DNA from: Terriglobia bacterium
GTDB lineage: Bacteria; Acidobacteriota; Terriglobia; JAIQFV01
Reading direction: 5' to 3'
NCBI GenBank assembly: GCA_028716525.1
Contig: JAQUPQ010000014.1
Location: 14,544-78,543 of the forward strand
Length of the DNA: 64,000 nucleotides
Shown here: piece by piece, positions 2,700 to 57,827 of the stretch
Layout: each line of letters begins with the position of its first letter
How positions within the stretch are numbered: the first letter of the stretch is position 1
Notes under the pieces: generated by a model
What the model saw: the letters and a program-made list of their open reading frames with translations, nothing else
Databases searched by the model: none
What the model was told of the DNA's origin: nothing
Translations under genes and position numbers: made by a program

Positions 2700-4403
2700 C
2701 TAGTAGTTGAACTGTGTAACGATCATGATCGCGTTCGTGCCCTTCGGGACAACATTGACGATGCCCAGTGGATTTGCCGCCGCCAACGAGGAACTGAACG
2801 TCGCGATCTGACCGGGTGACATGGTGAATTGGTTGTGAACGTAATGCAGGTTCGAGTCGCCCACGGCAATGTCAAAGTGATTGTTGAAGTGATAGCTGAT
2901 GCCGGCAACGGTGCGCGTGAAATCCAGAGGGTTTGTGCCGCTGATATTCGTGTTTGGTTGGAAATAGTGGAACAAACCGAAAAGCCGGAAAGGCGAGCTT
3001 CCCAGCTTGACGTTCCCAAAGAAGGCGAACCCTTGCTGGCGAGTATGGTCTCCATTGAGGAGCCCCTTGGCGAGGGCATCAAAGGTGGCATTGGGGGTCG
3101 GACCAAGACCGAATTCATCCGCCGGCCCGGAACCCGAGAACAGGTTTCCGGTGCTGAAGGCATTCCGTCCTAAATCGTATTCTCCCACGATTTCGTAAGT
3201 CTTGGCGGGACTCTGGTAGTGCGCAAAAAGCGCCAGCCGGTTGAGCGCAATGCTTCTGGTATCGGGCGTCTGGGTGTTGTAGCCATAATCCTCGAACGCC
3301 GTCAGGCCAAAGCCGGTTCGGTCTATTTTTGTCCCAAACGGGTACCAGGTGACACGGGCCATGACTTGCTTCTTGTCGTTGGATTCGATGGCATGGAAGC
3401 TGGCTGTGTTGAAGACACCGATGTCGTAATCCAAGAACTCCTTGCCATTGATCATGACGGGGCCGTGCAGTTTGACGCCCGTGTAGGTGGAGCTGAGGCT
3501 CAGATAATTCCAAGGTACCAAATAGGCGAACCGGAAGCCGCTCAACGCTTCTTCCCAGTCCACCAGCGGGTTTTGTGTTTGCCCGGCCGTGAGTTTGTCT
3601 TTTCCAAACATGTCACTGCCGGAAAACAACGTGTTGAAGTCGACATACGCGTATTTAAGACGAAAACCAAGATTCCCGTTGGAACTGGTGTTGATGGCTG
3701 CACCATTCCCGAAAGCTTGGGCTTTGGATACGTCAACCTGGCGGTAGATGTTCGGGGTAAGGCGGAGTGTCACGGCCTCAGTCGGCGTGTACACGAAGTT
3801 AAGGTAGGTTCGAGTGACATCGAAGGAATTGAAGCCGTCGTTTCCGGGCCCCGGCTGATTGGCTTGGGTAATGAACTGGGGGCCGAATCCCGTCTGCGTG
3901 TAATACGACCAGTCTCCGAAGAAGGTGGCTCCGAGTTGAATTTTCCCATACGCCAGATCGGACAACTTGGGCTCTTTCTTTTGGGAGGGTGAATCTTGAG
4001 AAGCCTCCAAGGCGGATGCCGCCGACGTCCCGGCCAGGGGATTGGTCGCGCCGAAGGCCGGACTCAATGCCCCCGCGGGAGGAAGAACGGGCTTTAGGCT
4101 GGCGACTTGACCCGCGCTCTTCAATCGTAAGATCTCATCCTGCTGCAACTTCAGTTGGGCGCTCATCTGATCCATGGCGCGTTTCAGGTCCTCAATGGTC
4201 TGGGCTTGCTTTTGTAACGCTTCCTCCAGTTGCTGCGACTTTTCATCGGCGGCCGCGGGCGGAGCAGCATTTGACTTCGCCGATTTTCTTTTCATCGCTG
4301 TCTTCTGAGCAGGGGAGTTGTCCGCCGCGAAAGCAGGAAGACTAATCGCCAACACAGCCAGAATTACAATTGTTACTGCCGAGAGGGACAGAGTCTTTCT
4401 CAT
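2700..4403 (-). CDS. Putative phosphate-selective porin (Porin O/P-like outer-membrane beta-barrel) with an N-terminal coiled-coil extension.
   Basis: It has a signal peptide and a Q/E/K-rich coiled coil, followed by alternating beta-strand-like segments and a C-terminal aromatic end (TQFNY). It lies directly upstream of, and in the same orientation as, pstSCA. A Pho-box-like repeat array sits upstream. Confidence 0.5.
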   Translation of the reverse strand: MRKTLSLSAVTIVILAVLAISLPAFAADNSPAQKTAMKRKSAKSNAAPPAAADEKSQQLEEALQKQAQTIEDLKRAMDQMSAQLKLQQDEILRLKSAGQVASLKPVLPPAGALSPAFGATNPLAGTSAASALEASQDSPSQKKEPKLSDLAYGKIQLGATFFGDWSYYTQTGFGPQFITQANQPGPGNDGFNSFDVTRTYLNFVYTPTEAVTLRLTPNIYRQVDVSKAQAFGNGAAINTSSNGNLGFRLKYAYVDFNTLFSGSDMFGKDKLTAGQTQNPLVDWEEALSGFRFAYLVPWNYLSLSSTYTGVKLHGPVMINGKEFLDYDIGVFNTASFHAIESNDKKQVMARVTWYPFGTKIDRTGFGLTAFEDYGYNTQTPDTRSIALNRLALFAHYQSPAKTYEIVGEYDLGRNAFSTGNLFSGSGPADEFGLGPTPNATFDALAKGLLNGDHTRQQGFAFFGNVKLGSSPFRLFGLFHYFQPNTNISGTNPLDFTRTVAGISYHFNNHFDIAVGDSNLHYVHNQFTMSPGQIATFSSSLAAANPLGIVNVVPKGTNAIMIVTQFNY

Positions 4404-4493
4404 CGATTCTCCTTTTGGTCTTCATGAAATTTGTGGACCAGCGCCGTTGCCCGAGTATTTGAGGACGACCCTAATTCTGAAGGTCGGGGCGAT

Positions 4494-53093: not shown

Positions 53094-53860
53094 ATCTGAA
53101 AACCTTTCTGGCGCTGATGCAGCGCGACACGGTGGTGGCGATTCGTGACTTGATCTCGTTCCTGGTCCGGACGCTGGTCCAACCCATGTTTCTACTGTTT
53201 ATTTTCGGCAACGTCATGATGCGCATGAGCCTGGTGACCGGGGGATTCAAAGAGATTCTGGTGCCGGGTGTCACGGCGCTCACCATGTTGTTTGCCGGCA
53301 TGCAGGCGGTCACGCTGCCGTTGGTGTTGGACCTCGGCTACACCAAAGAGATTGAAGACCGCTTGCTTTCGCCCATCGGGGTCCGTTACCTGGCCCTGGA
53401 AAAAATTGTGATGGGCACTCTGCATTCTATTTTCTCAGGTCTGCTGGTGATTCCGTTGGCCAAGGTGATGCTGCACGGCGGGGTCAGCCTGAGCTGGCAT
53501 CAATGGGAATTCACGCTCTTTTTGGCGCTTCTGATCGGTTTGGTGTCTTCGGCGCTGGGACTGACGCTGGGGACCTATATCAAACCGGAGAAAATCGGTT
53601 TGATGTTTTCACTCATCATCGCGCCGCTCATATTTTTTGGATGCACTTATTATCCTTGGGAAGCCCTTTACCGTATTCCCTGGATGCAACGTCTGGTGCT
53701 GATTAATCCCCTGGTGTACATGGCCGAAGCGTTGCGTTCGGCGATCACACCCTCAGTTCCCCACATGTCTCTTCGCTGGATTCTCTCAGGCTTGGTGGTC
53801 AGCTTGATTCTCTTCACCTGGCTGGGAATGAAAGGCTTTCGCAGTCGTGTGATCGATTGA
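53090..53860 (+). CDS. ABC-2-type transporter permease.
   Basis: It is a six-transmembrane-segment protein. Its start overlaps the ATPase stop, as in ATGA. Confidence 0.75.
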   Translation: MNLKTFLALMQRDTVVAIRDLISFLVRTLVQPMFLLFIFGNVMMRMSLVTGGFKEILVPGVTALTMLFAGMQAVTLPLVLDLGYTKEIEDRLLSPIGVRYLALEKIVMGTLHSIFSGLLVIPLAKVMLHGGVSLSWHQWEFTLFLALLIGLVSSALGLTLGTYIKPEKIGLMFSLIIAPLIFFGCTYYPWEALYRIPWMQRLVLINPLVYMAEALRSAITPSVPHMSLRWILSGLVVSLILFTWLGMKGFRSRVID

Positions 53861-53957
53861 TTGTCTGCGGAAGATGCATGGGAAATGTAAACGGATAATG
53901 CCGGTCGAACTGAAGGCTGCCGGCCGAGGAATTCAAGCTCACCACAGGTAATTCACC

Positions 53958-54359
53958 ATGTCGACCTTCAAAAATTTCCGCACCCTCGCCTTGAAAATGA
54001 CCGGTGCGATTGAGAGCGCCCATATGGGGCATCCTGACTTTCGAGTGGGCGGGAGGATTTTTGCCACCCTTCATGCAGACCTAAAATGGGGCATGGTCAA
54101 GCTGACTCCCGACCAACAACAGACCTTTGTTCGTGAAAATGCTAAGGCTTTTTCGCCGGAAAAAGGAGCATGGGGACGGTCGGGGTGCACCCGCGTGCGG
54201 CTGGAGTCCGTTGACGAAGACACTCTCGGGGAAGCCATGACGCTGGCCTGGCAGAACATAGTCAAGAAAGCGGTCGTTCACCGACCCGATTCTTCACGCC
54301 AGCCGCCATCGATCCCATCTTCTCGCCAGCGTCGGACTGGACTGAAGAAGCCTCGTTAA
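53958..54359 (+). CDS. MmcQ/YjbR-family protein (predicted DNA-binding).
   Basis: The sequence MSTFKNFRTLALKMTGAIESAHMGHPDFRVGGRIFATLHAD...GWVRL-type pattern matches the YjbR family. Confidence 0.55.
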   Translation: MSTFKNFRTLALKMTGAIESAHMGHPDFRVGGRIFATLHADLKWGMVKLTPDQQQTFVRENAKAFSPEKGAWGRSGCTRVRLESVDEDTLGEAMTLAWQNIVKKAVVHRPDSSRQPPSIPSSRQRRTGLKKPR

Positions 54360-54388
54360 CACCATCCCCTCAAAGTGTCAGTCACACA

Positions 54389-54558
54389 TCAAACAAGGGT
54401 AGTGACTCATTTTGAATGGGGTGGCGCACACATGCGCTCCAGGCATGTGTGCGGAGTCCCCCTTGTTGATGTACGCACGCATCGTCCGCCACGGCGGCCG
54501 ATGTATGCGCCACCCAGAGGTGAAAAAGAATTCAAAATGAGTCACTACCCAAACAAGC
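54389..54558. mobile_element. Miniature inverted-repeat element (about 150 bp) with 19-20 bp terminal inverted repeats, flanked by an 8-bp direct repeat CAAACAAG (a putative target-site duplication).
   Basis: The left end is CAAACAAG|GGTAGTGACTCATTTTGAA and the right end is TTCAAAATGAGTCACTACC|CAAACAAG. The interior carries nested palindromes (GCGCACACATGCGC...GCATGTGTGCG) and has no coding capacity. Confidence 0.55.
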
Positions 54559-54981
54559 AATCGATTTTCAGGTACACTCTTTTAATCTGTCATGTCGTTA
54601 CACGGGTGAGGTCATTGACCGGTTATTTTTACTGTGCTAGCATGCGGGTGTTCTTCTATCTTACACACAACGAGATGGTTGGCGAAGGGAATGCCGGTTT
54701 CAGGGTGATCATCCCCTAGCGTCGTGGCAGCAGCACGAACAGCAATTCGATAGTGCCACGGGGATGATTTTTCAAGTGGCTTTGAAGATTATTACCGCCA
54801 AGCATCTCTGCAGGCGCAACGCAGGGCGCGATATTGCCTCGAGGCGCCAATTCTGGTGCTTCACGTTTACTACAACGTCCCCGCGGTCTACAACCTGGAA
54901 TCAATAAGAAAATTCACCACAGAAGAACGGGCGTCGGAGCCGGCTGCGGATCTGCCGTGAGCGAAGGTGAGGAATCATGCT

Positions 54982-55110
54982 TAACATCGGCACGAAGCTG
55001 GGACCGTACGTGATTGAGCTGTTTTGGCGGCGTCCGAGCCGCCAGGCGAAATTCCCCGTGAGGAGATCAGGTGGTGGCTCGGCGAAGGTGAGGAATTATG
55101 CTTAACATCG
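54982..55110 (+). other. Decoy upstream ORF of 42 codons. It is created by a 58-bp duplication of the kinase ribosome-binding site, ATG and first 16 codons. Its TAA stop overlaps the authentic kinase start (ATGCTTAA).
   Basis: Copy 1 (54962-55019) and copy 2 (55082-55139) differ at 4 of 58 positions. The upstream ORF encodes [42 protein letters not shown]. Confidence 0.4.
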
Positions 55111-57827
55111 GCACAAAACTCGGACCGTACGTGATTGAGTCATCTCTGGGCGCCGGCGGGATGGGGGAAGTCTATCGCGCCCGCGATACGCGACTGGATC
55201 GTACCGTCGCCATAAAGGTTCTGCCCGACCACCTGGCGGCGACCCCGGAATTGCGCCAGCGCTTTGAGCGCGAAGCCCGGTCCATCTCGGCACTCAATCA
55301 TGCCCACATCTGCGTTCTACACGATGTGGGCTCTCAAGACGGCATGGATTTCCTGGTCATGGAGTACCTCGAAGGAGAAACACTGGCCACACGACTGGCT
55401 AAGGGAGCCTTGCCCCTCGAACAGGCGTTAAAGATTGGCATCGATATTGCCGACGCACTGGACAAAGCCCATCGCGCCGGCATCACCCATCGCGATTTGA
55501 AGCCGGGTAACATCATGCTCACCAAGAGCGGAGCAAAACTTTTGGATTTTGGCTTGGCCAAATCTGCCGTCATGAGGACAGGGACATCGGGGACAGCACC
55601 GCTGCTGAGCGCTGCCCTGACGATGACTTCGCCGAGCCCGCAGGTCTCTCCTTTGACTACGGCCGGAACGATTGTGGGCACTATTCAGTACATGTCGCCG
55701 GAGCAAATCGAAGGCAAAGAGGCGGATGGCCGCAGCGATATTTTTGCCTTGGGAGTTGTGCTTTACGAGATGGCCACCGGCAAGCGCGCCTTTGAGGGAA
55801 AGTCACAGATCTCGGTGGCCTCTGCCATTTTAGAAAAAGATCCGGAGCCGATCAGCAGTTCTCAGCCTTCGGCGCCGCCGGCTTTGGATCGCGTCGTACA
55901 AACCTGTTTGGCCAAAGATCCCGATGAGCGCTTTCAAACAGCCCACGATCTGAAATTGCAATTGAGTTGGATTACGGAAGGAGGTCCGGCTTCCGGTGCT
56001 GCACAACCGGTGAGGCTCGACTGGCCGGTGCGGCGTAAGGCTCTTTGGGCTGGAGGCGCCTTGGTGGTTGTTCTATTGGCTGCATTCGGCGGGACCTTTC
56101 TCGTGCCCAAACCGAATGCCCCCACGGTCCGGGCGATCATTGAGCCGCCCGAAAATCTGACCATCGACTCCACGGGTGATTACAGCGGCCCGCCGGTTCT
56201 TTCGCCTCAGGGCGACAAAATCGTCTTCTGTGCCCACGGACGTAACAGTCCCAAGGAGTTGTGGGTGAGGTCTATGAACAGCTTCTCCAGCCAGCGACTG
56301 GAGGGTACGGAGGGCGCCTACGACCCGTTTTGGTCACCCGACGGAAGTTCCATCGGGTTCTTCAACAACGGCAAACTCGATCGCATTCCGGTGAACGGCG
56401 GCCCCGTAACGGTGGTGACCGACGCGCCCAACGCCCGAGGCGGGACCTGGGGCCCCGGCGATGTTATTTTGATGGCACCGGACATCCAAGGGCCCATCTT
56501 CCGAGTGGGTGCGGATGGCGGCAAACCGACCGCCGTGACGCAATTGGATGTCAGCAAGCATACGACACATCGATGGCCGACTCTCTTGCCGGACGGCAAG
56601 CATTTCCTTTATCTGGCCACAAATCATAATGGAGGCAAGCTGGAAGAGAACGGCATCTATTTTGCTTCGCTGGATGGAAAAGAAAACCGCTTGCTTGTGG
56701 CTACCGATGGAGACGGGGAATATGCTTCCGGCTACCTGCTGTTTCATTCCGGAACAGAGTTGATGGCCCAGCCATTCGACCCCGGCTCCGGCAAACTCTC
56801 CGGCGAACCCTCGCCATTGGTCGGAAGGATTCGCCAGGATTCCGGCGTGTGGCGTACGTTATTTACAGTTTCGCAGAACGGCCTGCTTATTTACGAACCC
56901 GGCGCCGCTGAAACAGCGGGATCACAATTGGTCTGGTTTGACCGCAACGGTAAGCAGTTGGGTCAAGTCGGGGAACGGGGATCGTACATGGATCCTCGTC
57001 TTTCACCCGACGGCAAGCGTTTGGCCGTGAGCTTCGGCGATCCGCAACGCGAGATATGGATTTTCGGCCTGGATCGCGGAACAAAAACTCGTCTGACGTT
57101 CAGTCAAGCGGCGAGCGGGACCAAGGTGGAGCCGGCCTGGTCGCCCGACGGCAGGACCGTTGCTTATTCAACCTCTCTCTCATCGCCCGGGGGCAACAAT
57201 ACGGCGATTGTCAGCAAGGCTGCCAGCGGCAACGGTGGTGAAGAAATTCTGGAAGAACGGCGGGGGAACTCCTTGAGCGGATATCGCTACCCGTCCTGGT
57301 CGCCGAATGGACAATACTTCGTCTACGTGGTCTCGAACGGACCCAGCGGAGCCGCGATTTACGCGAAGCCGACCAGCGGGAACGGCCAACCCATTGAGGT
57401 CGTGCGGCCCACTGCGCCCCAAGCCAACATTGGTTTTTATCGCATCTCACCGAACAACCGCTGGGTCGCCTACACCTCCGATGAATCGGGACGCACCGAA
57501 GTGTATATCGCACCCTTCCCGCATGGTGACGGCAAGTGGCAGGTCTCGACGACAGGCGCGGACTTTGCGGCTTGGCGCGGGGATGGTAAGGAAATCTACT
57601 TCAATACCAATGCGGACGAATATACAGCATGCTCCATCACGGAGCAAGGAAGCGATCTCGAAATCGGGACACCCCAGGTGCTTTTCGCAGCCAACACCTC
57701 GGCTTTGGGCGTCGGATATGACGTGACGTCCGACGGCAAGCGCTTTCTCGTCAATCTTGCCGGCGATGAGACTTCTCCACCGCTGCATCTGGTCGTGAAT
57801 TGGCCCGGCGATTTGAAAAGGAAGTAG
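55098..57827 (+). CDS. Ser/Thr protein kinase with a C-terminal TolB-like (PD40/WD40-like) beta-propeller sensor domain.
   Basis: It has Hanks kinase motifs ([34 protein letters not shown]) and a transmembrane segment, followed by repeated SPDG/WSPDG PD40 motifs. Confidence 0.85.

Follow-up and report, generated by a model that had tools for sequence, protein, structure and literature searches.

A 152-bp non-autonomous element with IS1-type ends between a YjbR/MmcQ gene and a kinase gene of a Terriglobia bacterium

The spacer between a gene for a YjbR/MmcQ protein and a gene for a Ser/Thr kinase in a Terriglobia bacterium, an uncultured acidobacterium of soil, holds a short palindromic segment framed by a direct repeat. 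The question raised by this locus is whether the segment arrived by transposition as a miniature, is what remains of a larger insertion sequence (IS), or is a palindrome of the host and not a transposon at all. A first-pass annotation, made from the letters of the DNA, had called it a non-autonomous MITE. We addressed the question by analysis of the window (the whole 64-kb stretch of DNA, 64,000 nt) and by comparison with other genomes, metagenome contigs and protein collections.

Boundaries, interior and setting of the element

A repeat finder returned two arms of 21 nt (54397-54417 and 54530-54550) that are 100% complementary and lie 112 nt apart. The ends had been described as perfect inverted repeats, and this was borne out by terminal inverted repeats (TIRs) of 20 nt, GGTAGTGACTCATTTTGAAT at the left and ATTCAAAATGAGTCACTACC at the right, that are complementary at every position and directly adjoined on either side by the 8-bp direct repeat CAAACAAG that had been noted in the flanks. 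To place the boundaries, 174 such ends taken from other genomes were aligned; conservation begins exactly at the first G of GGTAGTG and spans 19-20 nt, with no conservation outside those 19-20 nt or deeper inside. The element therefore extends from 54398 to 54549 and measures 152 bp (the earlier estimate was about 150 bp), with 20-nt TIRs and an 8-bp target-site duplication (TSD). The extra G/C that brings the complementarity to 21 bases thus belongs to the TSD, not to the TIR.

Perfect 20-nt inverted pairs within 300 nt should occur ∼2e-5 times in 64 kb. The 19-mer GGTAGTGACTCATTTTGAA has exactly two occurrences in the 64-kb window, one on each strand, where dinucleotide-preserving shuffles predict 0.00, even with 3 mismatches allowed. 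Because CAAACAAG itself occurs five times in the 64-kb window, the octamer is not rare, and the information lies in the identity of the two flanks; the chance of two identical 8-nt flanks is 1.5e-5.

The interior is built of nested palindromes, as the annotation had stated, namely an 11-bp stem and a sub-terminal pair of inverted copies of a 15-nt motif (Table 1), and the fold computed for the full 170-nt stretch has an energy of −90.5 kcal/mol (z = −10.6). The statement that the element has no ORF held in substance but not to the letter: the element is traversed by mechanical ORFs of 42-114 aa and can be read without a stop in two frames, but the two stop-free translations had no relative among 5.8 billion proteins. 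In an Rfam scan of 53800-55300 (E up to 1), the sole match was a chance snoRNA-like one outside the element, and a search for promoter and terminator consensus sequences found none inside it, nor a terminator-like T-run.

The insertion site is indeed in the MmcQ-to-kinase intergenic region, 31 bp past the YjbR/MmcQ stop codon, and we found no interrupted coding sequence or recognisable signal there. A sigma-70-like promoter consensus (TTGACC, a 17-nt spacer and TAGCAT with an extended TG) lies downstream of the element, ∼450 bp before the kinase start, and is conserved in the relative L110 described below. We infer that the neighbouring genes are unaffected by the insertion; the stable hairpin may influence how stable the YjbR transcript is at its 3′ end, and we regard this as a candidate role.

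Two further features of the locus were observed. A ∼60-bp direct repeat, its copies 121 bp apart, duplicates the kinase ribosome-binding site and first 14 codons and gives rise to a 42-aa decoy ORF; in L110 the repeat unit is present once. The kinase also has a paralogue of similar length (∼900 aa) 2 kb away, both with Tricorn/PD40 beta-propeller C-terminal parts, and L110 is 69% identical in nucleotide sequence to this second kinase gene.

Table 1. Coordinates of the element, of its surroundings in the window and of selected elements in other genomes
Feature	Position	Strand	Basis or remark
YjbR/MmcQ protein	53958-54359		upstream of element; Pfam PF04237
Left TSD copy, CAAACAAG	54390..54397		sequence; single copy in empty-site allele L110
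Left TIR, GGTAGTGACTCATTTTGAAT	54398..54417	+	repeat finder; first 19 nt same as ends in at least 108 loci; conservation from base 1
Non-coding interior, 112 bp, G+C-rich, nested hairpins	54418..54529		repeat finder, folding
Sub-terminal inverted copies of GGGTGGCGCAyACAT	54419-54433 / 54501-54515		repeat finder
11-bp stem	54425-54435 / 54443-54453		repeat finder
Right TIR, ATTCAAAATGAGTCACTACC on + strand	54530..54549	-	repeat finder, pattern count
Right TSD copy, CAAACAAG	54550..54557		sequence; single copy in L110
Sigma-70-like promoter consensus	54615-54643	+	conserved in L110
∼60-bp direct repeat	54958-55019 / 55079-55140
42-aa decoy ORF	54977-55105
Ser/Thr kinase, 909 aa	55098-57827		downstream of element; ORF list
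Second Ser/Thr kinase, ∼900 aa	59957-62650
MITE copies in OY970371.1	L013 4490-4676; L020 6501-6686; L022 2905-3090 and 6767-6951
Small basic ORF (and 13 further elements)	L058 3376-3624	-
Small basic ORF	L029 about 4173-4406	-
Small basic ORF	L035 3329-3562	+
Full-length plasmid member, M. loti	L111 296-3665		CP050295.1
Full-length plasmid member, A. multivorum	L112 767-3400		NZ_CP041717.1

The empty site in a relative

The YjbR/MmcQ protein is identical to the database entry P0001 of an 'Acidobacteriia bacterium' MAG and has one closer relative, P0002, which is encoded on L110, a Logan contig of run SRR15058747. L110 is colinear with the window, with nucleotide identities of 89% in the YjbR gene, 90% in the spacer and 94% in the kinase gene. 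In BLAST, L110 88-521 corresponds to window 53963-54397 and L110 514-983 to window 54550-55017; the two alignments overlap on L110 by exactly 8 nt, CAAACAAG, and the element is absent. Consistent with this, the window from which 54398-54557 has been removed aligns gap-free with L110 across the junction ...CATCAAACAAGCAATC... in a pairwise alignment. The site was placed from the BLAST coordinates and the pairwise alignment; MAFFT, applied to the filled and the empty allele, put the gap in the wrong place.

L110 is thus an exact empty site in a relative at ∼90% nucleotide identity, with the single CAAACAAG that the first-pass annotation had proposed to look for. From this it follows that 160 bp (the element plus one octamer) were gained in the window lineage after the split from the L110 relative, and that the insertion postdates this split. 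Since both the ends and the duplication are perfect, the insertion is probably recent.

The filled allele is supported by Logan contigs of run SRR22315506, which match the window exactly and independently confirm both junctions, flank to TIR at the left and TIR to flank at the right. These contigs, L109 and L114, end at 54424 and 54521, 27 nt and 29 nt inside the element ends, respectively; the interior from 54425 to 54520 is unassembled in them, and the sequence there comes from the window assembly alone. We considered the contig breaks as evidence for multiple copies of the element and rejected this reading: the stretch that the element ends have in common with each other or with other family members is no longer than 25 nt, below k−1 = 30, and therefore repeats do not explain the breaks. 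Lower coverage of the hairpin or a heterogeneous interior is a possible cause.

A widespread family with the same terminal repeat

The annotation had proposed to count copies of the TIR in other genomes and to look for full-length insertion sequences that end in it, and both were found. The 19-mer end was scanned in 185,579 species-representative genomes and recovered at no fewer than 108 loci, mostly with 8-bp duplications, in about ten phyla (MAGs, with taxonomy taken from the record titles). The listed loci include Acidobacteriota/Terriglobia, Bacteroidota, Nitrospirota (Manganitrophaceae), Chloroflexota, Verrucomicrobiota, Actinomycetota, Ignavibacteriota, deltaproteobacterial groups and others. 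Three contigs of the viral collection IMG/VR (L115, L116 and L117) also carry the end, one of them in two copies.

When each exact end was paired with an inverted partner having up to 5 mismatches, the listed loci gave 67 candidate elements. The 8-bp TSD was perfect in 36 of these and matched at 7 of 8 positions in 7 more, and the perfect-TSD pairs comprise 19 elements of 101-1100 bp and 17 elements of 1.8-3.9 kb. Among the short ones, the Manganitrophaceae chromosome OY970371.1 has four copies of a 185-187-bp element that are 97-98.6% identical and are each flanked by their own perfect 8-bp TSD, different from copy to copy; the TIR is the same as that of the window element, with the right TIR deviating at 3-4 positions. 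This multi-copy miniature indicates that the TIR family does mobilise miniatures. The interiors of 26 short elements fell into 16 clusters, of which 11 are singletons, the window element among them, and the interiors of short elements are otherwise lineage-specific.

The long elements show the type of transposase that goes with these ends. A single-ORF protein of ∼275-295 aa is encoded by 14 of the 17 long perfect-TSD elements (L029 and L058 included), with 41-80% mutual identity, and the other three are cargo-only. The protein scored 29.2 and 29.7 bits against the Pfam model DDE_Tnp_IS1 (PF03400; cutoff 24.1), and it is 24% identical to E. coli InsAB′ (E = 1e-8), with an HTH and the D, D and E motifs (DE..W, TDG and ER.NL). 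It has relatives at E < 1e-20 in at least 8000 protein clusters, which JGI and NCBI name 'IS1 family transposase', and PGAP likewise annotates the relatives as 'IS1 family transposase'. The best NCBIfam model was the IS1 equivalog at 54.5 bits, below its cutoff of 100, and the relatives are therefore not classical IS1. The same follows from their gene layout: the insA plus insB′ arrangement with a programmed −1 frameshift is absent from the relatives, and one uninterrupted ORF of ∼275-295 aa takes its place, which puts them in a single-ORF branch of the IS1 family.

A second, unannotated ORF is also conserved in long elements. This basic ORF of ∼77-96 aa, with the motif ...IGRKGGLKGGKARA..LS..KR..IA.KAAKARW, is present in 16 of the 21 long elements that have this TIR. 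It lies 65-335 nt from one end, in every case upstream of the transposase and on its strand; the 16 include L024 and L035, which have no transposase. It had no match in Pfam or NCBIfam, and its position recalls that of insA of IS1, although it is not homologous to InsA. In full-length members, variable cargo lies between the basic ORF and the transposase, for example an HTH_3 plus Peptidase_M78 (ImmA/IrrE-like) protein in the Mesorhizobium loti element. Elements of 1.9-2.3 kb (L014, L024, L040 and L035) consist of TIRs and cargo with no transposase; the 8-bp TSD is perfect in L014, L024 and L040, and L035 has none.

We tentatively suggest, with somewhat less than even confidence, that the end GGTAGTGACTCATTTTGAA may mark an uncharacterised clade of single-ORF IS1-family 'transporter' elements in many phyla, always with a promoter-proximal basic ORF of ∼80 aa, with variable cargo and with repeatedly formed lineage-specific MITEs, including the window element. 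If this clade is real, the basic ORF could be a regulator or a DNA-binding cofactor of transposition.

Origin of the element and comparison with known systems

The element is certainly a non-autonomous, TIR-bounded insertion, and the interpretation as a non-autonomous MITE is supported by the empty site, by a TIR family with 8-bp TSDs and by IS1-type transposases in that family. MITEs are about 50-600 bp long and have no transposase gene, a range that includes 152 bp; the element also has TIRs, a TSD of the length seen in the parent-type IS, TIRs in common with transposase-encoding IS and an empty site in a relative. It is thus a MITE in the structural sense, although the term commonly connotes a multi-copy family, and an ordinary member of a very widespread IS1-type family, and we conclude that 54398-54549 is very probably a 152-bp non-autonomous derivative of a single-ORF IS1-family insertion sequence.

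Some results count against this reading. Within the 64-kb window there is no gene for an IS1-type transposase, the interior resembles none of the collected loci and has no recognisable remnant of a parental IS, and, as set out below, no second copy of it was found in the collections searched. By analogy with the family, a full-length element located elsewhere in the cell would have supplied an IS1-type DDE transposase that bound the two 20-bp TIRs and joined the element to a target opened with an 8-bp stagger, 31 bp past the YjbR/MmcQ stop codon; gap repair would then have duplicated CAAACAAG. Both the mobilisation in trans and a cognate transposase in this genome are presumed here, and the element would still be mobilisable if such a transposase is present.

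One other explanation is that a 2-3-kb IS1-family element inserted at this site, made the 8-bp TSD and then lost its inside, leaving a single-copy remnant that never moved as a miniature. We regard this as unlikely, although the interior has no second copy in any collection searched: blastn found none in the 64-kb window or in the 108 listed loci, two exact patterns found none in the JGI metagenome contigs, one scan found none in viral contigs, and a protein search with the two stop-free translations also found none. Singletons are moreover common among short elements, as the clustering of their interiors showed. However, the absence of copies is weak evidence, as the searches covered the JGI contigs and 108 loci rather than the source genome, and other observations speak against a collapse in place. 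In no frame did the element retain a trace of the basic ORF or of the 3′ end of the transposase gene. In addition, GGGTGGCGCAyACAT is inverted beyond the TIR, and such an extended palindrome is also present in the short members L011 and L028, whereas full-length L029 lacks it and its ends agree over ∼23 nt only. The extended palindrome and the absent coding remnants fit a mobilised miniature better than an in-situ collapse.

That the segment is no transposon but a host palindrome (a YjbR 3′ stem-loop or terminator, a small RNA or a REP-like sequence) with a coincidental 8-bp repeat, as its very stable fold and its location 38 nt past the stop codon might suggest, is highly improbable, given the identical ends of over 100 other loci that look like transposons and have 8-bp duplications, a precise empty site in a relative, and the lack of an Rfam family and of any terminator-like T-run or promoter consensus inside. 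In addition, REP/RAYT-type elements are not known to make target duplications.

For this genome, the element is a marker of recent transposition and implies that a cognate IS1-type transposase is active, now or recently, in this lineage. The filled/empty polymorphism could be used for strain tracking in Acidobacteriia populations, and the 19-nt end is a cheap probe for full-length, cargo-only and miniature elements of one IS1-type clade in many uncultured phyla. The element itself implies no unexpected biology.

Comparison with E. coli IS1 places the family near, but outside, the classical elements. The IS1 left inverted repeat GGTAATGACTCC was recovered in 4965 of 5426 E. coli genomes, and it agrees with the window TIR at 10 of its first 12 bases; the ends of both the window element and IS1A start GGTA(A/G)TGACTC, with GGTAGTG in the element and GGTAATG and GGTGATG in IS1. 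The TSD was 9 bp at the IS1A copy examined, compared with 8 bp for the window element. The terminal repeat contains the stop codon of the transposase gene in IS1 and likewise in full-length L029, L018, L053 and L063. In contrast, the transposase of the relatives has ∼60 extra residues between the second D and the E when compared with InsAB′, and whereas classical IS1 is a 768-bp element that uses an InsA/InsAB′ frameshift, the relatives have a single ORF and extra genes in 1.8-3.9 kb. The window element, unlike IS1, itself encodes nothing.

Closer full-length counterparts from cultured bacteria are carried on plasmids of Mesorhizobium loti (CP050295.1) and Acidiphilium multivorum (NZ_CP041717.1). 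Their transposases, QND69621.1 and WP_241419932.1, are 56-59% identical to the L029 protein, their ends, GGTAGTGGGTCAGTTTGAAA and GGTAGTGTCTCAGTTTGAAA, have 2-3 mismatches to the window TIR, and they are flanked by the 8-bp duplications CGCTGGTG and AAGCCGAG. In the classification of ISfinder, these two elements, and with them the single-ORF branch, probably correspond to the ISMhu11-type branch of the IS1 family. They are autonomous, 2.6-3.4 kb long and carry cargo, whereas the window element is a 152-bp shell that has only the ends in common with them.

Among described MITEs, MITEAba12 of Acinetobacter has TIRs and a TSD length in common with a resident IS, ISAba12, which makes 9-bp TSDs (PMC6382973), and so do SM3A and SMN1 of Sulfolobus with the insertion sequences on which they depend, ISC1058 and ISC1733 (PMC3718332). 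These MITEs belong to parent families other than that of the window element, and they are documented in multiple copies, some with observed mobilisation or outward promoters, whereas one copy of the window element was found in the collections searched. Like MITEAba12, SM3A and SMN1, however, the window element is small and non-coding, and its TSD has the length made by the insertion sequences that share its TIRs.
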